Position numbers and translations under genes: made by a program. A DNA stretch of 64,000 bases, taken from a phage. Location of the stretch: sequence record PX915678.1; one strand, 5' to 3'. Positions within the stretch are counted from its first letter, which is position 1. Each line of letters starts with the position of its first letter. Below the pieces are notes generated by a model. The model made no database searches, was not told where the DNA came from, and saw only the letters and a program-made list of their open reading frames with translations. Positions 2,190 through 52,789 of the stretch are shown piece after piece.

Positions 2190-2411
2190 TTAAATTAATA
2201 CCAGTTGTCGGTGAAAAATTGTTAATCCATCTGCATTAATTGACTTAACCACTGCGGTAAAGTGTTTTTGTTCTGGGTGAACTAATTTTTGAAATTCTAC
2301 CTGAAATTTTAGTTGGAGGTTTTCTGGTAAATCAAAAAGTGTTTCTGTTGCAGAAAGATTATATTTTTCTTTAAGAGACGCCATGTATTCTTGCGGAGTT
2401 ATAGCAGTCAT
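2190..2411 (-). CDS. hypothetical small protein (~73 aa from ATG)
   Basis: ORF between regA and 43; ATG at 2409-2411 overlaps regA stop (TAATATG context). Confidence 0.4.
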   Translation of the reverse strand: MTAITPQEYMASLKEKYNLSATETLFDLPENLQLKFQVEFQKLVHPEQKHFTAVVKSINADGLTIFHRQLVLI

Positions 2412-2412
2412 A

Positions 2413-2781
2413 TTAATTACCAATCGTATATTTAGGAACGAGTTTCCATTCGTGTTTTTGTTTAAAAGAAATAACTCGGAAGTTATTGGTCAAATCTTTC
2501 ATAAAAGTTCTTTGACCAGGAACGATTTCAATCAATCCCCAATCTTCTAACAGCCACGCAATCGAATCACGACGAACTTCATCTTCTTCTGTCATTTCAA
2601 CCTGACGGCCATCCATACGAAGCATTTCTTTAAAATGAACGATATAGTATAGTCCTTTTTTCTGAAGAATGTGGCAGGACTGATATAGAACTTTATCTTT
2701 ATTATTAGCAATTCCCATACGAGTCAAAGTTTCTTTTACTTTCAGAAAATCTTCAGGTTTTTTAAGAGTAATTTCAATCAT
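2413..2781 (-). CDS. regA: translational repressor RegA
   Basis: 122-aa ORF MIEITLKKPEDFLKVKETLTRMGIANNKDKVLYQSCHILQKKGLYYIVHFKEM..., recognised as T4 RegA; position upstream of 43. Confidence 0.93.
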   Translation of the reverse strand: MIEITLKKPEDFLKVKETLTRMGIANNKDKVLYQSCHILQKKGLYYIVHFKEMLRMDGRQVEMTEEDEVRRDSIAWLLEDWGLIEIVPGQRTFMKDLTNNFRVISFKQKHEWKLVPKYTIGN

Positions 2782-9069: not shown

Positions 9070-10268
9070 TTTGTAATAATGTCAAACTGTTCTTTAAAGC
9101 AGAAGCTTGAATCTTGATGCTGATACAAAAATTCATAAGCTTTTTCGCGTTCACGGTCATAAAGATTTCGGTCAGATGACAGTTCTTTAATACGCTCAAA
9201 TGTTGATTCCATGTCATTTTCATCAAACCAAACGATACCGCTATCATGAGAAATTAACGGAGTATTATCAACACGGAATTTTAAATTTTCGCCAGTAGAT
9301 TTCCAAAATACTGGAATTGTTCCACACGCACCAAGCTCGAGATGAGTATATTCTAAAGAACGTTGTAGATATTTTTTATCCAACTTACTCAACTGATAAC
9401 CAAATCCGGATTTACTCATACGTTCAAGCATTTCGCTATTTACATAACGGTCAAGAATTTGCGTTGGCAAATTAGGAGCAATTTTAATTTGGTCTACTTG
9501 ATGAAGACGATAATACTCGTATGGAATTCCTTTTTCTTTAATAGGAATGAACGCTGGAGAACGTTCCAGACCTTCCATAATAGTACTTAATCCAGCAGGT
9601 TTAAGATGTTTTTCGTGAAAATCAAACATCTGATAAAAACCTTTCCATGTAGTCGTACGACCGATCCAACGGTTGACATTCATATTAATTTCAGAAACAT
9701 CTTTCCAGTAGGTTGATCGAACCTTCGCAATATCCATAGGAGGCTGAAAGTTGTATACAGTCGGTGCTTCTTCAATATCATCAAACAGAGAAACTGTTTC
9801 TGGATACCATTCTTTCATCAGAACTTTATTAAAATCACCATTATCAGAATGACTAAAAATAACATCAGCTCGGCGAACAGTTTCTTCTAATCCCAAATTT
9901 CGACGCAAAGAAAGAGAAGAATGGTCATGTTGATAAACTACAACACGAACCGAAGGTTTAATGTTATCAATAATTTTTTTATAGTTATTAATAGTGTCTT
10001 CTTCGACTGAAGTAGCAGGAACTGAATTGATAATTAGAATATCACAATCATTTACCAGCTTAAGTGTTTTATCGTATTCTTTTGCCAATAAAACCGGAAT
10101 TGAAAATGATTTATAATCATGCGCGCAATTACGGGTAAATGATTTATCTTTAGCATAAACCAAAGTTACTTCATGACCATTTTTAATAAACCAATCACGT
10201 TGCTCAAGAGAAAATTTAGTTACGCCACAACCTTCAAGACCTCGAGCCATAAAAATGCATACTTTCAT
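9066..10268 (-). CDS. a-gt: DNA alpha-glucosyltransferase
   Basis: 400-aa ORF MKVCIFMARGLEGCGVTKFSLEQRDWFIKNGHEVTLVYAKDKSF..., recognised as T4 alpha-gt. Confidence 0.9.
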   Translation of the reverse strand: MKVCIFMARGLEGCGVTKFSLEQRDWFIKNGHEVTLVYAKDKSFTRNCAHDYKSFSIPVLLAKEYDKTLKLVNDCDILIINSVPATSVEEDTINNYKKIIDNIKPSVRVVVYQHDHSSLSLRRNLGLEETVRRADVIFSHSDNGDFNKVLMKEWYPETVSLFDDIEEAPTVYNFQPPMDIAKVRSTYWKDVSEINMNVNRWIGRTTTWKGFYQMFDFHEKHLKPAGLSTIMEGLERSPAFIPIKEKGIPYEYYRLHQVDQIKIAPNLPTQILDRYVNSEMLERMSKSGFGYQLSKLDKKYLQRSLEYTHLELGACGTIPVFWKSTGENLKFRVDNTPLISHDSGIVWFDENDMESTFERIKELSSDRNLYDREREKAYEFLYQHQDSSFCFKEQFDIITK

Positions 10269-10289
10269 TTAATATCCTCATTGTTTTGG

Positions 10290-11762: not shown

Positions 11763-11840
11763 TTTCACCTCTTAGCTCAATTCATAGATCTATTATATCA
11801 TAATATTTGAAGATCTATCTTAAAGCATAGAGGATATCAG

Positions 11841-12110
11841 TTATCTAAGTAAGCAGTATGCTTGGAACACTTTTTCCATCATCTTTTTAAATTCATGAAT
11901 ATCTATATAATGACTAGTTAAATCAGCATGATATAAAAAGTCTAAAAACTTTTCATGTGTGCTAGCATATTCACTTTCATTTAATTCAGAAACATGGCTT
12001 TCCCAATATCCAACACCAGTCTTATTTGGGAAAAATGAAATTTTCATGTATTGATCAACATAGAAAATGCCATAATTTTCAATAGTAATAGAAATATTAA
12101 TAAATTTCAT
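11841..12110 (-). CDS. hypothetical protein
   Basis: 89-aa ORF upstream of 55. Confidence 0.45.
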   Translation of the reverse strand: MKFINISITIENYGIFYVDQYMKISFFPNKTGVGYWESHVSELNESEYASTHEKFLDFLYHADLTSHYIDIHEFKKMMEKVFQAYCLLR

Positions 12111-14303: not shown

Positions 14304-14774
14304 TTAATCATGTTTCCACACCCCATCGGTATTTGACCAAAGTCGCTGATTATCTGATCCTCGCCACAGCTTTTTAGTCGGAAGATTTTTCTCATACTTC
14401 CCATCAATAATAACATCAACATATTTAAGCATTTCTAGTTGTTTAATATCTTCAAATTTATATCCTGTCCACAACCAAATGCTTTTATTTGGATAAAGAT
14501 TTTTTACTGTTTGAACAATGCAATGAACAACATCTCGGTTATCAGGATAGAGAGGGTCTCCTCCAGTTATAGTTAATCCTTCTATATAATCATTATTCAA
14601 ACATTCAATTAATTGTTCCAGCGTTTCACCAGTGAATGGAACACCGTTTCTAGCATTCCATGTTGATTTATTATAACATCCTTCGCATTTATGCAAACAA
14701 CCTGTAACGAAAAGAACGACCCTGCATCCAGGGCCATTCACAAAATCACAGGGATAAAATCTATCATAATTCAT
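14304..14774 (-). CDS. nrdG: anaerobic ribonucleotide reductase activase NrdG
   Basis: 156-aa ORF with radical-SAM Cys cluster CLHKCEGC; directly downstream of nrdD. Confidence 0.88.
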   Translation of the reverse strand: MNYDRFYPCDFVNGPGCRVVLFVTGCLHKCEGCYNKSTWNARNGVPFTGETLEQLIECLNNDYIEGLTITGGDPLYPDNRDVVHCIVQTVKNLYPNKSIWLWTGYKFEDIKQLEMLKYVDVIIDGKYEKNLPTKKLWRGSDNQRLWSNTDGVWKHD

Positions 14775-16588
14775 TGGTGTTTAACCCTATGCATGATTTC
14801 TTTATTTTTGCCGAGATTAAATCCGCGTTCATTCGGATTTCCCAAATAACCACAAGTTCTTCTTATTGTGTTCATCTTTTTAGGATCAGTTTCTCCACAA
14901 ATAGAACAAACAAACCCGTTTTCAGTAGGAGTCATTTCATGGGTACTTCCACACGTAAAACATTTATCTACTGGCATGTTAACACCAAAATAATCTAAAT
15001 GTTGTGCAGCATAATCCCATACAGCCTCAAGACCTTTTAGGTTATTTTTCATATCAGGAAGTTCAACATAAGAAATGTGACCACCTGTCGCAATGAAATG
15101 ATATGGAGCTTCGCGAGAAATCTTTTCAAACGGAGTAATATTTTCTTCTACTGAAACATGGAAACTATTAGTGTACCAGCCTTTATCAGTAACATCTTTT
15201 ACACTTCCATATTTTTCAGTATCAAGTTTACAGAAGCGATAACAAAGGTTTTCAGCAGGAGTAGAATACAAGCTAAAAGCAAAACCGGTTCTTTCAGTCC
15301 ACTGCTTAAGACGAGCATTCATTTTAGTTAAAATTTCCTGTCCAATATCACGACCGACAAGAATATTCAATTCGTGAATACCAATGTATCCTAGGGACAC
15401 TGAACTTCTACCGTTTTTAAATAACTCAATTATGTCGTCATCAGGTTTAAGACGAACCCCGAATGCACCTTCTTGGTAAAGAATAGGAGCAACAGTCGCT
15501 TTAACTCCTTTTAAGGAACTAATTCTACACATTAAAGCTTCAAAACATAAATCCATTCGCTCATTGAACAATTCGGCAAATTTCTGTTCATTGAATTGTG
15601 TTCCAATATAAGAATCTAACGCAATACGAGGAAGATTCAGTGTTACAACACCAAGATTATTACGTCCATCAAGAATTTCATTACCAGTCGAATCTTTCCA
15701 TACGCTTAAGAAACTACGGCAACCCATTGGAGAAACAGGAATAGATGAACCAGTGATAGCTTTATTGTTCTTAGCTGAAATAATATCAGGATACATTCTT
15801 TTGCTTGCACACTCTAGAGCAAGCTGCTTAATATCATAGTTCGGATCATCTTTATAAAGATTAACACCTTCTTCAACGAACATAACAAGCTTAGGGAAAA
15901 TAGGAGTTATCCCATCGCGACCAAGACCTTTAATACGATTTTTCAGAATTGCTTTCTGAATCATTCGTTCAGTCCAGTCAGTTCCCGTACCAAATGTAAT
16001 TGTTACAAAAGGCGTTTGTCCGTTTGAACTAAAAAGAGTATTTAGTTCATATTCATAAGCTTGGAATGCATCGTATACGTCTTTTTCTGTTTTAGATTGG
16101 GCATAATTCAACGCATCAGCGATTTGCCATTTTTCTGCATCCTCAATATGTTTTGCATAGGTGCGTTTAACATAAGGAGAAAGTACTTTATCTACATTCG
16201 CAAAAGTCGTTCCGCCATATTGATGGGAAGCAACCTGTGCAGTAATTTGTGCCATAATTGCAGTAGCAACGCCGATTGATTTAGGAGTTTCAATCTGTGC
16301 ATTGCCGAGCTTAAATCCGTTTTCAAGCATTCCTTTTAAATCTACTAAACAACAATTAGTAAATGGAAGAGCAGGGGAATAATCAATATCGTGGAAATGG
16401 ATAATTCCGCTTTCATGCGCTTTCATAATAAAAGACGGGACCATATTTTTGGCAATGTGTTTAGACACAATACCAGCCATAAGGTCCCGTTGAGTTGGAA
16501 AAACACGAGAATCTTTATTAGCATTCTCGTTTAAAAGGTCTTTATTAGTTTTATGAATCAATCCTTCAATTTCTTTTTCAATTGTCAT
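14771..16588 (-). CDS. nrdD: anaerobic ribonucleotide reductase NrdD (uninterrupted)
   Basis: 605-aa continuous ORF; C-terminal Zn-ribbon CFTCGS...CSICG and glycyl-radical motif RTCGYLG. Confidence 0.92.
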   Translation of the reverse strand: MTIEKEIEGLIHKTNKDLLNENANKDSRVFPTQRDLMAGIVSKHIAKNMVPSFIMKAHESGIIHFHDIDYSPALPFTNCCLVDLKGMLENGFKLGNAQIETPKSIGVATAIMAQITAQVASHQYGGTTFANVDKVLSPYVKRTYAKHIEDAEKWQIADALNYAQSKTEKDVYDAFQAYEYELNTLFSSNGQTPFVTITFGTGTDWTERMIQKAILKNRIKGLGRDGITPIFPKLVMFVEEGVNLYKDDPNYDIKQLALECASKRMYPDIISAKNNKAITGSSIPVSPMGCRSFLSVWKDSTGNEILDGRNNLGVVTLNLPRIALDSYIGTQFNEQKFAELFNERMDLCFEALMCRISSLKGVKATVAPILYQEGAFGVRLKPDDDIIELFKNGRSSVSLGYIGIHELNILVGRDIGQEILTKMNARLKQWTERTGFAFSLYSTPAENLCYRFCKLDTEKYGSVKDVTDKGWYTNSFHVSVEENITPFEKISREAPYHFIATGGHISYVELPDMKNNLKGLEAVWDYAAQHLDYFGVNMPVDKCFTCGSTHEMTPTENGFVCSICGETDPKKMNTIRRTCGYLGNPNERGFNLGKNKEIMHRVKHQ

Positions 16589-26977: not shown

Positions 26978-27435
26978 TCAGCCTTATATTCAATAACAGG
27001 ACATACTTTAGCTTTACGCGCTTTTAAAAATTCGACGATAATAGATTTCTTGGGTTGAATAGGAGGTAAACCTTTATACGCCCTATCAATATTTTCTACA
27101 TGTAAAGCATAATCCTTTTTCCATTTATAATCTTTATATTTTTCATGCAGTTGTGCAGGAATAACAAATGAACCAATAATAAGTAAAACAAGCAAAATGG
27201 CAAGTATAAATGCTGATGGAATAAGAGTCCATAAACTACCAAAAATAAGCCATTTCTGCATGATTTCCGCACAGATAATAGTTAGACCTGCGAGTATAGT
27301 ACATCCGAAAAAAGAAACGAAAAATGTAGGGATAACAATAGACCAAAAGTATGCACACAGTGTCTTAGGTCGTTTCCATTCATCATTAAACAGTTTGAAT
27401 AATTTATAGTGCCAAGAGTTTTCATTAATAATCAT
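26974..27435 (-). CDS. membrane protein
   Basis: 153-aa ORF with 2-3 hydrophobic helices. Confidence 0.5.
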   Translation of the reverse strand: MIINENSWHYKLFKLFNDEWKRPKTLCAYFWSIVIPTFFVSFFGCTILAGLTIICAEIMQKWLIFGSLWTLIPSAFILAILLVLLIIGSFVIPAQLHEKYKDYKWKKDYALHVENIDRAYKGLPPIQPKKSIIVEFLKARKAKVCPVIEYKAE

Positions 27436-27437
27436 AA

Positions 27438-27959
27438 TTATCCTTTCATTGAAGGTGTAACAGTTGTTAAATACTTAATCATAGCTTCAGCTTCTGATTT
27501 TGATAATGAAATTTCTCCATTGTTTTGACGAATAGAAATAAAATCCGGATGACGGTCACCACCAGCTTTTAAAATACACATATAAGTATCAGTTTCATCT
27601 TCAATATCTGAAATAATTGAAGCAGTTCCACATGAATGTGGTTTTTGATAAATCAATGCAGCTTTTCTTCCACCGTTTGACTGTTCATAAACTTTTAACA
27701 CATCAAACAAATCGCTTCTTTTATCAATAGCTAAGATGTTGTTTTCATCTTCAATGTTAAATCCTTCGGATACTTCATAAAGTGTCACCCATAAATCACC
27801 TATATCGATAGTAGCATTTCCTTTTCCACGACTTTCAAGAATATGACAAATTTTCTTGATTTCGTCATAACTCATTTTAATAATATCATCTCCTTGAATA
27901 AGGAAGATGTCATTTTTAAATTCAACGCGAATTAAACCACTTCCACTTGAAATAAACAT
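27438..27959 (-). CDS. hypothetical protein, paralog pair member 1
   Basis: 173-aa ORF; C-terminus ISLSKSEAEAMIKYLTTVTPSM resembles neighbour. Confidence 0.5.
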   Translation of the reverse strand: MFISSGSGLIRVEFKNDIFLIQGDDIIKMSYDEIKKICHILESRGKGNATIDIGDLWVTLYEVSEGFNIEDENNILAIDKRSDLFDVLKVYEQSNGGRKAALIYQKPHSCGTASIISDIEDETDTYMCILKAGGDRHPDFISIRQNNGEISLSKSEAEAMIKYLTTVTPSMKG

Positions 27960-30783: not shown

Positions 30784-31365
30784 CTAACCGAGCTTTTTAG
30801 TTAATTCATTCCAGTGTTTTCTACACAAAGAAACATAAATTTCATCACCAATACAGATTTGATTACCTTCTTTAACTGGTGTTCCATCTTCCATTAATCG
30901 AGCTGTCATAATCGCTTTTTTACCACAATGACAAACTGCTTTTAGTTCAATAAGTTTATCTGCAATCGCCAAAAGTTCTTTAGAACCTTCAAATAATTTT
31001 CCAGCGAAATCAGTCCTTAGACCATAAGCCATAACAGGAACATTATATGTATCAACAATTCGGCTTAATTGATGCACCTGTTCAGTTTTTAAAAACTGAG
31101 CTTCATCTACAAATACACAATGAATATCTTTTTGTGCTTCAGCCCATTTATAGAACTCAAAAATATCCATATCATCCGTAATAATATTCGCTTCCTGTTT
31201 AATTCCAATGCGAGAAACGACTTCACAGACAGAATCGCGAGTATCAATAGCAGGCTTAAGAACTAATACACTCATTCCACGTTCTTTATAATTATGCGCA
31301 GCAGTCAAAAGAGAAGCAGATTTTCCAGCATTCATTGCTGCATAAGTAAAAATTAAACTCGCCAT
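30784..31365 (-). CDS. tk: thymidine kinase
   Basis: 193-aa ORF; P-loop YAAMNAGKSASLL, CHCG...C..C Zn motif; position after rI. Confidence 0.88.
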   Translation of the reverse strand: MASLIFTYAAMNAGKSASLLTAAHNYKERGMSVLVLKPAIDTRDSVCEVVSRIGIKQEANIITDDMDIFEFYKWAEAQKDIHCVFVDEAQFLKTEQVHQLSRIVDTYNVPVMAYGLRTDFAGKLFEGSKELLAIADKLIELKAVCHCGKKAIMTARLMEDGTPVKEGNQICIGDEIYVSLCRKHWNELTKKLG

Positions 31366-31374
31366 ATCACCTTC

Positions 31375-31560
31375 TTAAAGCGTATTCACATAAGCTATTA
31401 ATTCATTTTCTTTCTTATCAAACCGATCAGCAAATTCTTCCTGCTGTTCGGGAGATAGCGGGCCGTATTCATCATAAAAGGTGTTTGCTTCTGTATGCTC
31501 ATCTAGAAGTTCATGGATAAGCTCAAACAATTTATCTTTTTGTTCTTTACTCAGACTCAT
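31375..31560 (-). CDS. hypothetical acidic protein
   Basis: 61-aa ORF. Confidence 0.45.
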   Translation of the reverse strand: MSLSKEQKDKLFELIHELLDEHTEANTFYDEYGPLSPEQQEEFADRFDKKENELIAYVNTL

Positions 31561-31726
31561 ATATTAATTTCCAGGAGTTTTAAAATAATTCGCTTTTGCT
31601 TAAATATTTCCACAGTTAAATGATCAGTATCTTTTTGACCGATTCCAATGGCAAAACCTTTATTAACAGCGAGTTCAATTAAATTATCAAGTTCACGTAA
31701 CACTTCATATTGTAGCTCAGAACTAT

Positions 31727-31954
31727 TCATTTCGGTTTACCTTCTTTAACGAAATCAGGATAAGGATAAAATCCTGAATAAAATCCTTCACCTTTGTGAT
31801 TGGTGCATCCTTTATTAGAACAATAGCACCAATAATCGAAATCACAAGTCATTTCATCATTACATAAAGCAAAAACAACTGGCCATTCACACTTTTCGCA
31901 GTGGGCATTTTTAAGAATACTAGTTTGGCTCATAACCATGTAACCTTTAAGCAA
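31727..31954 (-). CDS. hypothetical Cys-rich protein
   Basis: 75-aa ORF with multiple Cys/His. Confidence 0.45.
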   Translation of the reverse strand: MLKGYMVMSQTSILKNAHCEKCEWPVVFALCNDEMTCDFDYWCYCSNKGCTNHKGEGFYSGFYPYPDFVKEGKPK

Positions 31955-35996: not shown

Positions 35997-36149
35997 TTTA
36001 TTCTCTCTAAATTTGGGCCATTCCATGGCGCATGAATTGTCCATTTCTGTATTTACCCATTACCGCACTTGGGCTCGACCTTATTACAGGTTGGCGGGAA
36101 TCCCTCATAGAATCATGAGGTCCAGCTTGTTCCCATATTTCTTATTTGC

Positions 36150-36623
36150 TTATTTGAATGATTTGACGTACTGAATAGAGCCTTTGCTATTCACGAAAGC
36201 GATTTTACCATTTTTGTTATACATGGTAGCAGTACGCTGATAACCATAAGTTTGTTTACCAGATTGATAACCAACTAATGCGAAATTATCTTCACCCATT
36301 TTATTCTGCTTAGCGCGGATACGTTCATGACCGTGTGCCATAAGAACCTTAGCGTCGCCAGTTGCAATGGATCTACGAGTTTTTTCATCTTCAACTGTAT
36401 TAACAAAATCGTCAAATGAATCAAATTTAGCATGAGATTTATTATACAGTTTTCCATCTACTGCATAATTATATCCCTGTACATCCATCTCAACTTCTGT
36501 ACCATCATCCAATACAGCAGTGATTTTTTGACCTTTTTTAAATTTCAAAAGATCAGTAAAAGATTCAGCGATAATTTGAGAATTAATAGCTGCTTCAGTG
36601 ATAAATTCTTGATATGTTTTCAT
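36150..36623 (-). CDS. internal protein (IP) family member with capsid-targeting N-terminus
   Basis: 157-aa ORF beginning MKTYQEFITEAAINS (CTS-like signature ending in E); late promoter TATAAATA 35 nt upstream. Confidence 0.65.
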   Translation of the reverse strand: MKTYQEFITEAAINSQIIAESFTDLLKFKKGQKITAVLDDGTEVEMDVQGYNYAVDGKLYNKSHAKFDSFDDFVNTVEDEKTRRSIATGDAKVLMAHGHERIRAKQNKMGEDNFALVGYQSGKQTYGYQRTATMYNKNGKIAFVNSKGSIQYVKSFK

Positions 36624-36632
36624 GTGTTTCCT

Positions 36633-37049
36633 TTAAATGTAAATAGTTTTACCGTAGTATTTATACCAGTATGGCTTCATTAAAATTTTTTCATCGAGTC
36701 GTTGTTGACTCAACTTAATAGCTGATTTGCATGGATTATAATCATTTTTCCATTCTGCTGGAATATCGCTGATGTCAGGAACTTCAGTATCTTTTATACT
36801 AAACCCACGTTTTAAGCATTCCGTTATAATGTCTGATTGACGCTTTCGCAAAAATTCTAACTTATCGTAAAAGAACGTGACATGACCAGAACCTAAAATA
36901 AACTCGGAAGATATTTTAAAATCTTTAACCCGCTTACCATTTGCAACATGTTTACGAACTATACCAAAAACACGTGGCAATTCACGGTATTCTGCGATTA
37001 AATGTTGATCAGCAAGTTCAGATACTAAAGTCAAATTAATACGAGTCAT
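36633..37049 (-). CDS. denV: endonuclease V (pyrimidine-dimer DNA glycosylase)
   Basis: From ATG at 37049 (SD GGAGGG): [29 protein letters not shown]...[14 protein letters not shown], 138 aa, recognised as T4 DenV. Confidence 0.92.
36658..36665 (-). promoter_or_regulatory. late promoter (TATAAATA) for IP gene
   Basis: mRNA-sense GGTATAAATACTACGG upstream of ORF 36150-36623. Confidence 0.55.
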
Positions 37050-40529: not shown

Positions 40530-40571
40530 AGTATTTCCTTAGGTTGATTAAAAATAAAATCTGTGGAAGAA

Positions 40572-41117
40572 TTATATCATACTATTTAAGAGATGTAAAC
40601 TATTTTTAATTTTACAAATTCGTTCAGCTTCTTCAACGGCGGCGGCGATAATGCTTTTAGCTATAGGAGTACTAATACTAGTAGCTTTTACACTTAACAC
40701 GATTTCTTTATCTTTACTAGGCCAACCCCATGATTTTTCACCATGAGTGCCTTTAATTACAGCAGACACCTCAAGTGAGCATCCACTGTCACATGTTTTT
40801 ACATTAACAACCCAAGGGTCACTTTTCTCAACCGATTTCTCAGCCGGTTTATCCCAGTAAATATTAAGAATACGTGGGACATCAAATTTAGCAGGGCAAA
40901 TCTTAACTGTAAGACCTTCGCTTTCTAGCCAATTAATAAGAGGGCGTTCATACATGCGGCGATGTGGGCTTTGGACTCGACAAGCCTTGTGCCCATTGCT
41001 TGCGGCTTCACTAAGCTGTTCTAATACCTGTTTTTGCATTATTGATAAGATATCATCAAAAGATTTTTCGGAAGTTTCATTCAGTTCGGTATAAAGAGAC
41101 ATAACGGTTTTCCTCAA
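40572..41117 (-). CDS. hypothetical protein
   Basis: 181-aa ORF. Confidence 0.5.
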   Translation of the reverse strand: MRKTVMSLYTELNETSEKSFDDILSIMQKQVLEQLSEAASNGHKACRVQSPHRRMYERPLINWLESEGLTVKICPAKFDVPRILNIYWDKPAEKSVEKSDPWVVNVKTCDSGCSLEVSAVIKGTHGEKSWGWPSKDKEIVLSVKATSISTPIAKSIIAAAVEEAERICKIKNSLHLLNSMI

Positions 41118-42523: not shown

Positions 42524-42874
42524 TTAATATTCTTTTAAAGCATCAATCTGTTCACGGCGTTTACGCCATAAATCAATTGCTTCATACGCAGATTCAGCAT
42601 TTCGAATTAGTCGGCATTTGTGTAAAGACTTGTGATTTTGATATTGTGTAGATAACGAAATTTTATCTAAAAGGTCTTTACGTTCAAAGTATTCGTAACC
42701 ATCTAAGCCAAATGAACGATTTTTGAGAAATTGCCAATGACCATATTCGTTTTCGACATAAACATAATCCGCGTGTTGATAAAGCAAATTAATTACACGT
42801 TCAGAAATAACAGTGTCATTGTGATTAAAATAGAATGTTAAATCATGAACTACTAAATAAACATTACCTTTCAT
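42524..42874 (-). CDS. hypothetical protein
   Basis: 116-aa ORF immediately 3' of tRNA-Arg. Confidence 0.5.
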   Translation of the reverse strand: MKGNVYLVVHDLTFYFNHNDTVISERVINLLYQHADYVYVENEYGHWQFLKNRSFGLDGYEYFERKDLLDKISLSTQYQNHKSLHKCRLIRNAESAYEAIDLWRKRREQIDALKEY

Positions 42875-42890
42875 ATTTTCCTCACTTAAT

Positions 42891-42966
42891 TGGTCGAGGC
42901 AGTAGGGATCGAACCTACGACCTAGGACTTAGAAGGTCCTTGCTCTTCCTTCTGAGCTATGCCTCG
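42891..42966 (-). tRNA. tRNA-Arg (anticodon UCU)
   Basis: Cloverleaf CGAGGCA/TGCCTCG acceptor, anticodon arm AGGAC-CTTCTAA-GTCCT, T-arm GTAGG-TTCGATC-CCTAC, encoded CCA. Confidence 0.85.
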
Positions 42967-42970
42967 TATT

Positions 42971-43045
42971 TGGCGGACGTGATAGGATTCGAACCTATAA
43001 CCAATCGCTTAACAGGCGATCGCTCTGCCATTGAGCTACACATCC
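42971..43045 (-). tRNA. tRNA-Asn (anticodon GUU)
   Basis: GGATGTG acceptor, anticodon arm ATCGC-CTGTTAA-GCGAT, T-arm ATAGG-TTCGAAT-CCTAT, CCA encoded. Confidence 0.75.
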
Positions 43046-43049
43046 AAAT

Positions 43050-43136
43050 TGGTGGGGAGTGATGGAGTCGAACCACCCGAGTCGCAATGACAATGAATTT
43101 ACAGTCCACACCGCTACCTCTACGGGATAACTCCCC
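43050..43136 (-). tRNA. tRNA-Tyr (anticodon GUA), long variable arm
   Basis: GGGGAGT/ACTCCCC acceptor, anticodon loop CTGTAAA, variable arm TGTCATTGCGACTCG, T-loop TTCGACT, CCA encoded; 87 nt. Confidence 0.7.
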
Positions 43137-43149
43137 TTAATTCTTAATT

Positions 43150-43224
43150 TGGTGGCCCTGGGTGGAATTGAACCACCATCTGGCGATTATGAGTCGCTTG
43201 CTTGAACCTTCCAGCTACAGGGCC
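43150..43224 (-). tRNA. tRNA with CAU anticodon (Ile2-like; Met not excluded)
   Basis: GGCCCTG/CAGGGCC acceptor, anticodon loop CTCATAA, T-arm GGTGG-TTCAATT-CCACC. Confidence 0.75.
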
Positions 43225-43808: not shown

Positions 43809-44324
43809 TTAAAGCAAATTAAACATTTTAACGGTCGGCAAAACAATTTCTTCTTCGATATAAGCAAATTCTACATGTTCAACTACACGCAAGAAATCAT
43901 ATTCATAGTATTCAGAAGCATGACCAAGAATATCAATGAGGCCTTCAGATATCTTATTACCATTCACAAAGAATAAGTCAAATACACGTTCTTCATCTTC
44001 TTCGGATTTATTACCAAGGTCAACTTCTATATCAAAAACTTTTTTAATGAATTCTGGATAAAGTTGGTCTGAGAACAGTCCTTCAACCAAATATTCATAT
44101 ATAAAAAGCTCCTGCTCGCTGAACAAACCATTACCACAATAACGGTCAGCTTTAGTGCTAGAATGACGACTCTTAAACTTCTTCAAGAGATATTTAAATT
44201 GCTGGAGCTCATGCTCTTCTACACCAAATAGTGTTTTGGTTTTATAGTTGTCACCATCATTTTCATAGGTAGTGACATCAATTACGTAGCCCTTAGGAAT
44301 TGTGCTGCCTAAACGAATATACAT
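43809..44324 (-). CDS. hypothetical acidic protein
   Basis: 171-aa ORF ending just upstream of tRNA-Gln. Confidence 0.5.
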   Translation of the reverse strand: MYIRLGSTIPKGYVIDVTTYENDGDNYKTKTLFGVEEHELQQFKYLLKKFKSRHSSTKADRYCGNGLFSEQELFIYEYLVEGLFSDQLYPEFIKKVFDIEVDLGNKSEEDEERVFDLFFVNGNKISEGLIDILGHASEYYEYDFLRVVEHVEFAYIEEEIVLPTVKMFNLL

Positions 44325-44620
44325 TTGCTCACCATATTAATGTAAGTATATTTAATACATTCAAGATCCAAAGGATTCTTGAAAATATCATATTCAAGAG
44401 GACCTTTTTCTGTTTCAATAAAGAAATCAAAATTTACTGTATTAAATTTACGGTCTTCCTTTACTAATTTAACTTGAGAAGATGAACGGTCAATGTAAAC
44501 CTTTTCAACTTCAAAATATGTTAAAATACCATAATCATCAATCAAGGATTTAGCTGCTTCTTGATCATATTTATATCCATTTTCAATGGATGATACTTTC
44601 GCATAAAGAATCATTATCAA
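44309..44620 (-). CDS. hypothetical protein
   Basis: 103-aa ORF. Confidence 0.5.
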   Translation of the reverse strand: MIMILYAKVSSIENGYKYDQEAAKSLIDDYGILTYFEVEKVYIDRSSSQVKLVKEDRKFNTVNFDFFIETEKGPLEYDIFKNPLDLECIKYTYINMVSKCIFV

Positions 44621-46282: not shown

Positions 46283-46995
46283 TATAGTACCTTTAGTGTA
46301 TTTTCAATTTTAGAAAAAAGTTCTTCAAGAGAACCATCGTTTGTAATTACTAAATCGCCATCACGAATTGGCAATCCAGCTTCTGTAATATGTGTATCAT
46401 TGGATTTTTGACCAGGACGAACTACATGAATTACTGTAGCACCCATCGCCCTAGCCGCATCCATTTCATGATCTTGACGAGTATCAGGAACGATATAGTA
46501 ATCATAACCTGAGTTAAATTTATCAAGATAATCTAAAGCAAATAATTTTACCCAATACATGCGGTCGAAGTTATTAACAATCAAATCCGTACCTAGGGCT
46601 TGCATCAGACGACGGACTGACCATTGATCTTCAATATTATTTATAACGTCAGCAATCTTGTTAAATGCTACGAAATTAACTGCGTCATCAAAAACAAACA
46701 CGCCTTTAATTGGGCTTTTACTATTAAGATAGCAAAATGCTTGTTCCATAATCGTAATTACTTCTAATTTAGTCAGATTTAAATTAGTCTCACGATCATA
46801 GTCAATTCCTTCAAACTCTTTACGAGTTAAGCAAGGATAGTCAGTGCTTGCTGCAAATACACCCCATGCATAAGCCAATGCATCTTTAATAGGACCAGCA
46901 AGTTGATATTTAACTGCAGAATAATTTTCCATGATAAAATCTGCAGTAGTATCTTTTCCACTACGCTTTACACCACTTAAAAAGATTAGTTTCAT
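46282..46995 (-). CDS. 1: deoxynucleoside monophosphate kinase gp1
   Basis: 237-aa ORF with P-loop GVKRSGKDT; synteny 57A-1-3. Confidence 0.85.
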
Positions 46996-47044
46996 ATGTT
47001 TCTCCTCAAATTTAGTTAAGATTATAACACATGAAACTGAAGCA

Positions 47045-47575
47045 TTAAACTTCTGCTATAATTTTGCCATCTTTTTCTACTTGAAAATACGTATAAGGAA
47101 TCGTTGCTGTGCATACTAAGGCTGGGTCTGAATCTTCCGTGTAGCTAAATTCTACTTCAGAGAGGTCAGAAACCCAAGGCTTATAAAAATTTATTGACAT
47201 CACGATTTCAGTTTTACTATTATCTAAAATGTAAAGCGTAATGTATTCAGGACCTGTTTTTTGGGCAGTATTTTCGCCTGTAAGATAGTTACTAGTTCCT
47301 AGCATCCATTCATACATTCCTATCCATGACTTAAGCTCTTCATCAACTATAAATCTCACGATGAGTGGATCATACTCAAATGTAACTCCTGGACGCTGTG
47401 CTCGGCCTAGTCCAAACGGCCCAGTCACGGTATCAGTAACAGGTATCCTAATTCCTGGAATAGGAACTGACTGAGCATTTAAAGTAAAAGCAGATGTAGT
47501 ATTACTATGTGGTATTGATACTACAAAGTTAGTTGTATTTGCTTGGTTAAAAATTTGTTGTAGTGCTTGCGACAT
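47045..47575 (-). CDS. 3: tail sheath stabiliser/tail completion protein gp3
   Basis: ORF from MSQALQQIFNQ (176 aa, T4 gp3 size); between genes 1 and 2. Confidence 0.7.
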   Translation of the reverse strand: MSQALQQIFNQANTTNFVVSIPHSNTTSAFTLNAQSVPIPGIRIPVTDTVTGPFGLGRAQRPGVTFEYDPLIVRFIVDEELKSWIGMYEWMLGTSNYLTGENTAQKTGPEYITLYILDNSKTEIVMSINFYKPWVSDLSEVEFSYTEDSDPALVCTATIPYTYFQVEKDGKIIAEV

Positions 47576-47681
47576 ATATTCCTCATAATGCTTCATAAAT
47601 GTTGGTGGTATAATGGGTCTAAGTCCCTTCCATTCAATTCCAATTAGAACAAACAATAGAAAAGAATGGAAGATAATAGAA

Positions 47682-48356
47682 TTAATTTATTAGACTTCTT
47701 AAACGAGCAGAAGTCATAAATGGAAATTTTTCTAAAGTTGGCTTTCGCCAATATCTTGGATGACAAGTTGATTTAAAATCAAGAACAATTTTCTTTGCTT
47801 CATCAATAGTGTTAACTCCAAAGTTATCTAACATTATTTTCTTTTCTTTTTCCCACCGTTTATTAGCTAAAGCAGATTGAAGCTTTTTGTTTTTAAATGT
47901 GTCATTTTTTCTAGAATGAGTTGTGCCTTGTGTCGGACTCCATCCTCTTCCTAAAATAAATCCCTCAGGAATTATATCTCCATCATGTAATTTTATACAT
48001 CTTTTACCATTATTATAATATTTTCGTCCAGTTTGTGTATTTGAAATATTATTTGCATGTTTTCTTTTTAACCAACCATAAACTTTATTATTTCTCCTAA
48101 CATATTTAGTTGAAACCGTCATTTTTATGGCTGCATAAGATAATTTTAAAGAATTTGGGTGTATTTTTACTAATAGCTGATGTGCAACATAATGCTCTTC
48201 TGGAGTTAAATCAACCAAGTTAGAAGCATCATTACTACCGCCTAAACATTTCGGAATAATATGATGTCTTTCTTTATATCCAGTAAGGGCTCTATTGCGA
48301 GCCCTATCAATTAGTGAATTATAAATTTTTTCATAATTCATCGTACATTGCTCCAA
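47682..48356 (-). CDS. free-standing HNH homing-type endonuclease
   Basis: 224-aa ORF; HNH core [32 protein letters not shown]; basic C-terminal region; between genes 2 and 3. Confidence 0.7.
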
Positions 48357-49165
48357 ACTTTGTTTGCAGAGAAACGTTTTCCTTTGGAGTAGAAGCTTTG
48401 GAGTGGCATTAACACAACGTTCGCCCAGTCTTTCGGGGCGATTTCAACAAGGCTACCCATAATATTACCAGGTATATATGCCTTAATCATTTGGTCTGCA
48501 CCCCTAAATCCTTTCACTTGACTCCAATCAATTTTTAATTTCGTTTTATTAGTAATAGTAGGTGTATTTGAATATTGCTTTAAAAGCTCTTCTAGAAATT
48601 GCTGACGAGCTTTAGGTGGAATATAGTGCAAGTTCAATCCGTACATTAAATTATGTTTACCTAAACCAAGGTAAATTATCAAAGGAAATTTATCCCAGTA
48701 AGGAAGAGTTTCCTTGTGTTTAGCATCATAAGCAAAAGCATATATTCGTCCCGGCTGCGGGCGAACAACTTTATGTCCTTTTACTTGTTTAATAGTTTCA
48801 GCAAACCACTTTTTGGTTTTATTATTAATTGCTGCACCTTCATTACGAATTTTATCACGCAATGTTTGCCTGAATGAATTTATCATAAGCAGTTGTCTTT
48901 CTTGCTTATTGAGTTTATTCATTGGTTTTGATTCAAGCTTTTGAATCTTTTCAGCTGTTTTAATTCCTGAAGAATATTTTGACATTGCTGAAGTAAACGT
49001 AGAGTATTTGATTCCTCTTTCTTCAGCAAATTGCTTTCCTGTCATTCCTTTTGCTTTGGCCTTTTTGTATTCAAGACCTATCTGAATCCATTTCTTTTCG
49101 TTTAATGATTGCTTAACCTTTGGAACTTGGGGAGTGCTTTCATTAATTATTTGAAAAATAGCCAT
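48338..49165 (-). CDS. 2: DNA end-protector protein gp2
   Basis: 275-aa ORF between gene 4 and HNH gene; size/synteny as T4 gp2. Confidence 0.8.
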
Positions 49166-49617
49166 TATGCCCCCTTAAAGCCAAGAGCTCGTAATCCATC
49201 TTCTGTTAGAATTCTAAATTTTATTCCACGCTTTTCAGCTAAAGCTTGCGCTGCTTTCCATTTGTCAGTATTAACGGAATATGTATAAATTTCATTCATA
49301 AATCTTTTCTTCGCTGCAGTTGTTAGATGTGCCGGTTTAACTGGTGGTTGTGTTTCTTTTTTAGGTTTTATTTCAATAAAAAATTCTTGTCCAGAAGAAT
49401 CTTTCATCCAAATATCCATGAAGTATCTACGTTTTTTCCCTTCTGCATTACAAAAATAAGGAATTACTGCTGTTTCACTACCCCATGCAATAATTTCTGG
49501 ATTTTTATCTAACCATTCAAAAAAGAATTTTTCCCAATTTGATCTATACGTAATTTTTTTAGGGTCACCTCTATATTTTGATATATTTTTAGGAACCCAT
49601 TTTCCAGAATATGCCAT
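49165..49617 (-). CDS. 4: head completion protein gp4
   Basis: 150-aa ORF, divergent from gene 53, T4 gp4 size. Confidence 0.8.
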
Positions 49618-49628
49618 TGGATTCTCCT

Positions 49629-49636
49629 TATAAATA
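49629..49636 (+). promoter_or_regulatory. late promoter (TATAAATA) for gene 53
   Basis: Plus-strand TATAAATA about 29 nt upstream of gene 53 ATG; interleaved with divergent gene-4 promoter. Confidence 0.6.
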
Positions 49637-49643
49637 GATAATA

Positions 49644-49651
49644 TATTTATA
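49644..49651 (-). promoter_or_regulatory. late promoter (TATAAATA) for gene 4
   Basis: Minus-strand TATAAATA about 27 nt upstream of gene 4 ATG. Confidence 0.6.
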
Positions 49652-49664
49652 AACAGGAGGGCCC

Positions 49665-50255
49665 ATGCTCTTTACATTTTTTGATCCGATTGAATATGCG
49701 GCCAAAACGGTGAATAAAAACGCGCCGACTATTCCTATGACAGATATTTTTAGAAACTATAAAGACTATTTCAAACGTGCTCTTGCGGGATACCGCTTAC
49801 GTACTTATTATATTAAAGGTTCACCACGCCCGGAAGAATTAGCAAATGCTATATATGGAAATCCGCAGTTGTATTGGGTTTTATTGATGTGTAATGATAA
49901 TTATGATCCGTATTATGGATGGATTACTTCGCAAGAAGCTGCTTATCAAGCATCTATACAAAAATACAAAAACGTAGGTGGAGACCAAATAGTATATCAT
50001 GTGAATGAGAATGGTGAAAAATTTTATAATTTAGTATCATATGATGATAATCCATATGTTTGGTATGACAAAGGCGATAAAGCTAGAAAATATCCTCAAT
50101 ATGAAGGAGCACTTGCTGCGGTCGATACGTATGAAGCTGCTGTTCTTGAAAATGAAAAACTTCGTCAAATAAAAATAATAGCAAAATCAGACATCAATTC
50201 ATTTATGAACGACCTTATACGTATAATGGAGAAATCTTATGGAAATGATAAGTAA
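49665..50255 (+). CDS. 53: baseplate wedge protein gp53
   Basis: 196-aa ORF preceding gene 5. Confidence 0.85.
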   Translation: MLFTFFDPIEYAAKTVNKNAPTIPMTDIFRNYKDYFKRALAGYRLRTYYIKGSPRPEELANAIYGNPQLYWVLLMCNDNYDPYYGWITSQEAAYQASIQKYKNVGGDQIVYHVNENGEKFYNLVSYDDNPYVWYDKGDKARKYPQYEGALAAVDTYEAAVLENEKLRQIKIIAKSDINSFMNDLIRIMEKSYGNDK

Positions 50256-51966: not shown

Positions 51967-52495
51967 TATACTTCCAATGAGCGCTGATTTAGGAGAATCC
52001 ATGGAAGGTTCTTCTATCGACGTCACCTTTACCGCTCAATTAGAAACAGGTGAAACGTTAGTATCTATAAATATAACTAGTTACGAAGAAACTCCTGGGG
52101 TTTTAGTAGAAGAAAATCGTTTATATGGAACGTATGAATCTGTGTTTGGATTTGGAAATGATGCGTTGAAATATCGTTTAGATAATGAATTTAAAACTGC
52201 TGCTTCATGGGAAGACCTTCCAACTGATTCTAATACTCAGTTATATTTATGGAAAGCTCCTCAGAACCTCCAGAAGACATTCACTTACGAAGTAACATTA
52301 ATATATGACTACCAAGAACAAAGTGAATCTGGAGGTTCTGGCAGTAATTCTAGGTCATCTTCTGATACCACTGAACCAACTAATCCTCCAGCTCCAATAA
52401 GAAAAACTCTTGTTAAAAATTATACAAAAACTATAGTTGGAAATTGGAGTCGTTGGGCTAATAAATTGAGAAGCTACGTGTATGAGAGGCCATAA
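51938..52495 (+). CDS. hypothetical baseplate-region protein (5.1 position)
   Basis: 185-aa ORF overlapping gene 5 end; start uncertain. Confidence 0.5.
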
Positions 52496-52789
52496 ATGTC
52501 AGGATTAAGTTATGATAAGTGTGTTACTGCCGGCCATGAAGCATGGCCTCCAACAGTTGTGAATGCTACACAAAGTAAAGTATTCACTGGAGGAATTGCT
52601 GTTCTCGTAGCAGGCGATCCAATTACAGAACACACAGAAATTAAAAAGCCATATGAAACACATGGCGGAGTGACACAACCTAGAACTTCTAAGGTATATG
52701 TCACTGGAAAGAAAGCTGTTCAAATGGCTGATCCAATATCATGCGGTGATACAGTGGCTCAGGCATCATCTAAAGTATTCATTAAATAG
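52496..52789 (+). CDS. 5.4: PAAR-repeat spike-tip protein gp5.4
   Basis: 97-aa [22 protein letters not shown]... immediately before gene 6. Confidence 0.8.

Follow-up and report, generated by a model that had tools for sequence, protein, structure and literature searches.

A probable Mob-family HNH homing endonuclease gene at the gene 2-gene 3 junction of a T4-like phage

Genes 3 and 2 of T4 are neighbors, as the preliminary description of the locus studied here had stated: gene 3 (75424-75954) and gene 2 (76061-76885) are 106 bp apart, with no ORF in the spacer. In the phage sequence that we analyzed (a stretch of 64,000 nucleotides of record PX915678.1, hereafter the window), an ORF with the core of an HNH nuclease lies between the same two genes. 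What does this ORF encode, how is it fitted between two essential genes, and is it mobile? The preliminary description had proposed a mobile endonuclease of the homing type. This proposal found support in the prevalence of empty sites, the invariant HNH residues, the homology to Mob proteins, the lack of an intron and several population signatures, which are presented below. The gene is referred to as the HEG (homing endonuclease gene).

The reading frame, its neighbors and its protein family

The minus-strand ORF 47682..48356 (a mechanical ORF of 224 aa with a TTG start at 48356) is real and holds the HNH core. Its position between genes 3 and 2 was borne out by the ORF list and by the identities of gp3 (PF06841, PHROG 45) and gp2 (PHROG 429). 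Judged by its matches, the ORF is not a product of chance: residues 1-199 matched PHROG 655 ('homing endonuclease') at 1e-58, and a large-database search returned 2933 relatives at E<=1e-5.

The ORF itself stood as first described; the length of 224 aa and the 19-nt overlap with gene 2, which go with the TTG start, did not. From the sequence, the likely start is the ATG at 48341-48339, which would give a protein of 219 aa and an ATGA overlap (4 nt) with the gene 2 stop codon. A Shine-Dalgarno sequence GGAG (48354-48351) is situated 9 nt before this ATG (GGAG-N9-ATGA, where TGA is the gene 2 stop), and a CDS of 660 nt is the version annotated in RB32, ESh26, fPS-2, and e11/2. The TTG start was rejected because the TTG overlaps the GGAG and because the related records give the 660-nt CDS.

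The window phage is a Tequatrovirus: over the 2.4 kb around the HEG, it has 99.4% identity with Shigella phage ESh26 and 97-99% with many others. With respect to transcription, gp3 is encoded downstream of the HEG, while gp2 and then gp4 (49165..49617) are encoded upstream; gp53 and gp5 are on the strand opposite to gp4/gp2. Both genes flanking the HEG are full length. For gene 3, the mechanical ORF is 47045..47656, and the gene of T4 length is the one given in Table 1. Gene 2 is one codon longer than that of T4, with the C-terminus ...WSNVR* compared to ...WSNI*. A search of positions 46900-49700 gave no Rfam match, hence no group I intron, and a group I intron context for the HEG was rejected on this ground. 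The HEG is free-standing, i.e., it is outside an intron and its neighbors are intact.

Two other observations concern the adjacent genes. The gp2 sequence (48338-49165) matched two PHROGs, phrog_32288 'HTH DNA binding protein' with residues 1-79 and phrog_429 'DNA end protector' with residues 79-274, which suggests a two-module protein. Gene 1 (dNMP kinase) has at window position 46682 a 12-bp in-frame indel polymorphism (237 aa vs 241 aa) that segregates independently of the HEG in the 14 genomes compared.

Table 1. Coordinates of the features discussed in the text (positions in the window unless another sequence is named)
Feature	Position	Strand	Description
Gene 3 (tail completion/sheath stabilizer)	47045..47575	-	176 aa from ATG, T4-like; Pfam Phage_T4_gp19, PHROG 45
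Gene 2-gene 3 spacer	47576..47681	-	106 bp, unaltered by the insertion; opens with TTCTATTATC right after TAA
TAA-TCTATTA motif	window 47672-47684; L004 (P479) 2658-2672; L008 3643-3657; L010 3685-3698; L021, L022 800-814		
HEG coding sequence (likely start)	47682..48341	-	219 aa + TAA stop; 100% aa identity to RB32ORF146c; PHROG 655 at 1e-58
Insertion relative to the empty T4-type allele	47685..48343	-	659 bp, directly before the gene 2 stop codon (alignments)
HNH motif	48180..48266	-	residues 26-54
Gene 2 (DNA end protector)	48338..49165	-	275 aa, PHROG 429
Last five gene 2 sense codons	48344..48358	-	GTC TGG TCA AAT ATC -> GTT TGG AGC AAT GTA, then CGA TGA
Polymorphic cluster in gene 2 tail	48386..48401	-	eight substitutions, QSFYS vs QQFVS; 45-60 bp upstream
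T4 late-promoter consensus TATAAATA	49644..49651	-	upstream of gene 4; nearest promoter-like element for gene 4, gene 2 and the HEG
Differences from T4 at T4 HEG loci	10259-10284, 14754-14774, 16050-16053, 26978-27941, 42524-43205, 52492-52497		

When compared with the T4 proteins by BLASTP, the HEG product matched MobB (45% over 126 aa, E=6e-30), MobD (53% over 75 aa, 7.5e-23), and MobC (34% over 134 aa, 1e-17), all three matches being restricted to the N-terminal part; in tblastn, the HEG matched annotated mobB and mobE regions. About two dozen of the relatives found in the large database are full length, with 44-64% identity. The remaining ones share the N-terminal 45-60% only, and a few of them carry NUMOD-type domains (PF07460, PF22083). 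Such a modular pattern, with a common N-terminal part and a varied C-terminal part, agrees with the published layout of the Mob proteins, which have an HNH domain and a distinct C-terminal region; MobA and MobE are known to nick their targets (PMC2988022).

The canonical HNH core claimed in the preliminary description held on alignment: residues H26, H27, N41, H50, and H54 are invariant in 23 of the 23 full-length orthologues (44-64% identity). A profile built from the orthologue alignment matched the HNH motifs of McrA (6ghc) and of a group II intron maturase (6me0) with E about 0.007. The gathering thresholds of Pfam were missed by both HNH (PF01844; 16.5 vs 21.4 bits) and HNH_5 (PF14279; 17.8 vs 27.5 bits). 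Going by these comparisons, the HNH motif is present, yet the curated Pfam models formally miss this subfamily. In NCBIfam, nothing beyond a weak match to the HNH region of IscB was found. By homology, the HEG product is a member of the T4 Mob (HNH) family, in which the N-terminal domain is homologous to those of MobB/MobD/MobC and the HNH residues are conserved.

The C-terminal tail is basic, as had been noted earlier: from residue 81 on, there are 31 K+R compared to 11 D+E. In the AF2 model, a beta-beta-alpha domain at the N-terminus is followed by a beta-hairpin, a disordered linker, and a helical domain at the C-terminus. Residues ~85-219 make up a basic region that is confidently folded in the model (save for the 136-145 linker) and is conserved among the junction orthologues only. 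Neither a Pfam family nor a PDB fold match marks this region as DNA-binding.

Insertion before the gene 2 stop codon and the series of alleles

The empty T4-type allele reads ...GTC TGG TCA AAT ATC / TAA TTCTATTATC, and the occupied allele reads ...GTT TGG AGC AAT GTA / CGA TGA ATT ATG... ...ATA AAT / TAA TTCTATTATC (slashes mark the ends of the insertion). Since the insert stands before the TAA, the HEG uses the old stop codon of gene 2; the original gene 2 TAA (47682-47684) is now the HEG stop, and gene 2, longer by one codon, ends at a new TGA. The alignments fix both boundaries of the insertion to the base. The recoded last five codons of gene 2 were found only in the HEG-bearing alleles (a fixed difference between 8 HEG-bearing and 6 empty genomes). 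We see that the synonymous serine change from TCA to AGC creates the GGAG (48354-48351) inside the gene 2 end.

The same geometry, with the same 659 bp, was observed in Gaprivervirus, with occupied junctions in P479 and VR7 and empty ones in RZ and SP18. The end of gene 2 native to this genus (TGG AGA AAT TCA) already has a GGAG, and the insert is present without recoding. In every full-length orthologue that was located (P479, Konradin, Serratia SP1, and two metagenomic lineages), the order is gene 2, HEG, gene 3.

How common is the insert? Among the 513 phage records matching the 2.4-kb region, we found 38 occupied Tequatrovirus junctions; RB32, HY03, fPS-2, and vB_EcoM_112 are counted twice each among the records (GenBank and RefSeq). 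A 200-bp probe across the empty junction of T4 showed an empty junction in ~464 of 504 Tequatrovirus records, T4 and T2 included. The presence/absence comparison of the gene 3-gene 2 junction that was suggested at the outset thus gave empty alleles as the majority, and with 38 occupied vs ~464 empty junctions the occupancy is ~8%. Phages of the same isolation series may be split. For example, the insert is found in fPS-2 but not in fPS-65, in FL23 and FL44 but not in FL33, and in ESh26, ESh30, and ESh32 but not in ESh17. The presence/absence polymorphism at the junction recurs in a second genus, Gaprivervirus, with nine occupied records and many empty ones. The empty sites that were sampled are clean and nearly identical, with no scars and with pi=0 in the gene 2 tail (six HEG-less genomes).

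Decayed copies were seen in 4 of the 38 occupied records (FL23, FL44, CT01, and Manna). A 1-nt deletion in an A-run splits the ORF in FL23 and FL44 (FL23 segment 1501-2159), while an internal deletion of ~486 bp in CT01 leaves a 57-codon ORF without the HNH motif (CT01 segment 1783-1956). The decayed alleles of CT01 and FL23/FL44 retain the recoded gene 2 end. The HEG of Salmonella phage Manna (segment 2146-3441) lacks 1 nt at the very 3' end (...CTAATATCTAA-type) and, with it, the stop codon; it is annotated as a single 431-codon CDS that runs through the spacer into gene 3. Judging from the record, this CDS could be a true read-through fusion or a sequencing error.

The Manna variant, along with short strings common to the two genes, prompted us to ask whether the HEG 3' end could have arisen from that of gene 2 by duplication and degeneration. 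We disfavor this reading because the HEG C-terminus (..LRxLI..) is conserved throughout the protein family and because an insertion before the stop codon accounts for the common TAA more simply.

For the analysis of horizontal spread, we used an alignment over 3.4 kb of a small sample, 6 empty genomes and 8 with the insert (CT01, a deletion derivative, included among the 8). Among the same seven genomes with a full-length insert, the nucleotide diversity pi was 0.0049 in the insert compared to 0.013-0.033 in the flanks; the insert is therefore 3-7 times less diverse than the flanks in the HEG-bearing genomes, and the flank diversity of these genomes equals that among the empty ones. Outside the insert, the sites fixed between the HEG-bearing and empty groups (8 vs 6 genomes) were confined to positions 48338-48398, and the SNPs elsewhere in the alignment formed mosaic patterns common to both groups. 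We also observed that the HEG-bearing genomes do not cluster by their flanks, which in many cases have a HEG-less genome as the closest one. The nearest neighbor of the window in both flanks is the HEG-less ECP2301, and the nearest neighbor of RB32 in the downstream flank is the HEG-less T4.

The intact copies of the HEG differ by six synonymous vs two non-synonymous SNPs, a sign of constraint, and the GC content of the insert is 29.7% compared to 35% in the window. These patterns are in keeping with a young element and its recent spread to diverged backgrounds, and they counter an old vertical inheritance. They should be taken as support for mobility rather than proof, since few genomes were compared and mosaic flanks can also arise from the heavy recombination among T4-like phages.

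Candidate target site, expression and proposed mechanism

Two features were found to be strictly linked to the HEG, namely the insert and the recoded last five codons of gene 2. From allele differences alone (HEG-bearing vs empty), we infer a recognition/cleavage site that would cover the stop codon of gene 2 together with the first part of the spacer and would be destroyed by the insertion, as are the sites of classical intron/intein HEGs. The QSFYS cluster in the gene 2 tail is present in all HEG-bearing genomes sampled, yet it is not exclusive to them: ~15 empty-site Tequatrovirus records match the HEG-type gene 2 tail, and the HEG-less F26 and RPN226 combine the QSFYS cluster with a T4-type end and an empty site. 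The cluster was rejected as a self-immunity determinant or cleavage site of the MobE/nrdB kind, since F26 and RPN226 carry it without the HEG and since both tail variants occur in Gaprivervirus with and without the HEG. Records of the F26/RPN226 type could be recombinants, or they could represent the ancestral background on which the HEG landed. F26 and RPN226 would be useful natural substrates for the study of target specificity.

The string TAA-T(T)CTATTA(TC) was found directly at the gene 2 or HEG stop in Tequatrovirus, in Gaprivervirus, and in two metagenomic lineages. In the form TAA-TCTATTA, it stands after the stop in 4 of 6 lineages and in empty alleles too; the spacers of those lineages otherwise differ. 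This motif could belong to the homing site or serve natively as a regulatory element.

With respect to expression, no TATAAATA was found within positions 46646-49628, and a T4-consensus late promoter of the HEG's own was rejected, the nearest TATAAATA on the right strand being the one upstream of gene 4. A late promoter is annotated in fPS-65 at the equivalent position. No terminator-like site was seen inside the HEG. With neither an own TATAAATA nor an internal terminator, the HEG is probably transcribed late in the gene 4-gene 2 message, as is the promoterless mobE; transcription of gene 3 must read through the HEG.

An 11-bp inverted repeat (GAATTATGAAA / TTTATAATTC; 48291-48345, minus strand) allows the HEG start codon to pair with codons 5-9, and for the window sequence this hairpin has dG -21.4 and z -1.96. 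A hairpin sequestering the RBS and the start, as for I-TevI, was nevertheless not supported, because no consensus structure was found across six lineages.

Very probably, the comparisons point to a free-standing HEG of the Mob family that is, or very recently was, active. Its product would be translated from the ATG at 48341, overlapping the gene 2 stop, on a late message that starts from the promoter at 49644-49651 and also covers genes 4 and 2. In a co-infection, the N-terminal HNH domain would nick or cut the uninterrupted junction of a relative (...GTCTGGTCAAATATC TAA TTCTATTATC...), on which the enzyme would be positioned by the C-terminal region (~residues 85-219). The recombination-dependent repair of T4 would then copy the cassette from the HEG-bearing genome. 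The latter would be immune, its site being split by the insert and the adjacent codons being recoded. By analogy with MobA, MobE, and I-HmuI (PMC2988022), a strand-specific nick is a more likely lesion than a double-strand break.

Homing that is weak or has been lost would be compatible with the data, since the occupancy is ~8% and at least 10% of the copies are decayed. One may therefore ask whether the HEG is defunct or nearly so, with an intact ORF that no longer homes and is kept by linkage to the essential genes 2 and 3 or by general recombination, like T4 I-TevIII. The low occupancy and the 4 of 38 copies in visible decay speak for this, as does the fact that activity was never demonstrated for T4 mobB, mobC, and mobD, the closest paralogues (Table 1 of PMC2988022). 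However, the catalytic residues are invariant in 23 orthologues, synonymous SNPs prevail six to two, the insert is far less diverse than its flanks, which points to a recent spread onto several backgrounds, and the same polymorphism is maintained in Gaprivervirus; we find a defunct HEG quite unlikely. The clean, scar-free empty sites (with pi=0 for the gene 2 tail), the lack of clustering by flanks, and the 3-7 times lower diversity of the insert weigh against an ordinary accessory gene that entered an ancestor a single time, was passed on vertically, and was deleted many times. A deletion derivative is indeed known (CT01), but we regard such a history as highly improbable.

A different possibility is that the nuclease is retained for a benefit to the phage, besides or instead of homing, through damage to gene 2 of co-infecting relatives or through recombination or amplification of neighboring genes. 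There are precedents: the partial exclusion of T2 by T4 is mediated by HEGs (PMC2993671, PMC2988022), an intron endonuclease helps in the competition between co-infecting phages (PMC11620839), and SegB promotes the amplification of anti-defence loci (PMC13096335). The tie of the family to the gene 2 end across several genera agrees with a benefit as well. On the other hand, nothing in the sequence separates a benefit from selfish drive, and the ~92% of Tequatrovirus records without the HEG, together with the repeated decay, argue against strong positive selection. We give this reading a low probability, while noting that interference competition is compatible with homing. As for an HNH accessory factor of DNA packaging or of the terminase, as in HK97-like phages, the position beside genes 2 and 4 is the only point in its favor. 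T4 and more than 460 relatives package their DNA without the HEG, and the homology is to Mob homing endonucleases and not to terminase-associated HNH proteins; such a role is scarcely credible.

Relation to known elements and significance

The HEG is the same element as RB32ORF146c and is, as such, already known, an identical protein having been annotated in RB32 since 2006; it belongs to a textbook family. The RB32ORF146c protein (ABI94970.1) is 100% identical and is encoded at the same site between genes 3 and 2; the two genes differ by two synonymous SNPs. Its annotation reads 'putative site-specific intron-like DNA endonuclease; similar to mobB; not conserved from T4 position', and copies are annotated in RB33, HY03, e11/2, fPS-2, and others. 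Petrov et al. listed RB32 with two mob-like HEGs (Table 5 of PMC2993671). A literature search found no biochemical or genetic characterization of the ORF146c or VR7ORF161c protein.

With T4 MobB/MobD/MobC, the HEG product has in common a homologous N-terminal HNH domain, 'MNY...HHIIP.C.GG.D..NLV.LT..EH', and the genes of all of them are free-standing between conserved genes and optional among relatives. The C-terminal half of the HEG product (beyond ~residue 126), however, has no detectable similarity to these proteins, and the insertion site differs.

The gene for MobE is promoterless and co-transcribed with the upstream gene; MobE nicks a neighboring essential gene, and the host is immune via sequence differences (PMC2790892). 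In tblastn, the HEG matched the annotated mobE region of phage RB5 with ~45% over 111 aa. Like mobE, it lacks a T4-consensus late promoter and directly follows the upstream gene, so that it probably depends on upstream transcription. There are differences as well. MobE nicks ~120 nt inside nrdB, away from its own insertion point, whereas the differences specific to the HEG coincide with its insertion point; an internal terminator is present in MobE and none was seen in the HEG; and the activity of MobE was demonstrated in vivo, while that of the HEG is predicted.

Full-length orthologues with 52-63% identity are the VR7ORF161c/P479 'mobile endonuclease' of Gaprivervirus and the proteins of Konradin (Acinetobacter) and SP1 (Serratia). 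They have the same domain order and the same insertion at the gene 2 stop as the HEG, but the sequences have diverged. The P479 orthologue starts with TTG, and the annotation of VR7ORF161c points to similarity with MobB and RB32 ORF146c. For I-HmuI, the expected layout is alike in its two parts, an HNH nuclease domain and an extended DNA-binding region (on the HEG side, from the AF2 model); the I-HmuI gene lies in an intron, whereas the HEG is free-standing, and no significant sequence or fold match between the two was recovered.

The window phage also differs from T4 at other HEG loci (Table 1). It is without mobB, mobC, the nrdD intron with I-TevII, and segC (with 5.3), and in place of the mobD and segB regions it has unrelated ORFs (153 and 173 aa; 116 aa). 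No second Mob-like gene came up in a tblastn search of the window; the HEG between genes 2 and 3 is therefore the only occupied locus among these T4 HEG loci. Other segments without a T4 counterpart in blastn (window 2193-2413, 11835-12096, 31365-31929, 36138-36640, 40546-41107, and 43828-44349) presumably correspond to the usual small hypervariable ORFs. Between gene 4 and gene 2, P479 (L004, 533-1180) and Konradin (L005, 518-1168) carry a second HEG, which is unrelated and of the GIY-YIG (Seg-like) type. With a GIY-YIG HEG on one side and the HNH HEG on the other, gene 2 of these two phages is flanked by two HEG families.

A broader reading is that a single HEG lineage is specialized on the last codons of gene 2, its stop, and the TAA-TCTATTA spacer start, and has tracked this site in at least four lineages of Straboviridae (Tequatrovirus, Gaprivervirus, Acinetobacter Lazarusvirus, Serratia SP1 and metagenomic phages are the lineages concerned), possibly as a weapon against co-infecting relatives and not through selfish drive alone. 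A role as a weapon is conceivable because gp2 protects incoming DNA ends, so that a nick or break in gene 2 could harm relatives. We consider this reading rather unlikely as a whole. The HEG borrows the stop codon of a host gene, and on this reading it would need a Shine-Dalgarno sequence written into the final codons of the same gene.

The finding has little consequence beyond bookkeeping: the window phage joins the minority of T4-type phages with an RB32-type mob-like HEG at the gene 2/gene 3 junction. What the comparisons contribute is the exact geometry of the insertion, the candidate target site, the allele series, and the presence of one HEG lineage at the same junction in several genera. 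How nicking by Mob enzymes promotes homing has been flagged as an open question in the field (PMC2988022), and since it is still open, a second tractable Mob enzyme would be of modest use. The T4 gene 2 stop/spacer junction, ~30 bp, offers a candidate target for such an uncharacterized enzyme, and experiments on homing and immunity are made easier by the alleles that occur in nature, which are intact, frameshifted, deleted, or empty, some of the empty ones with the QSFY tail.
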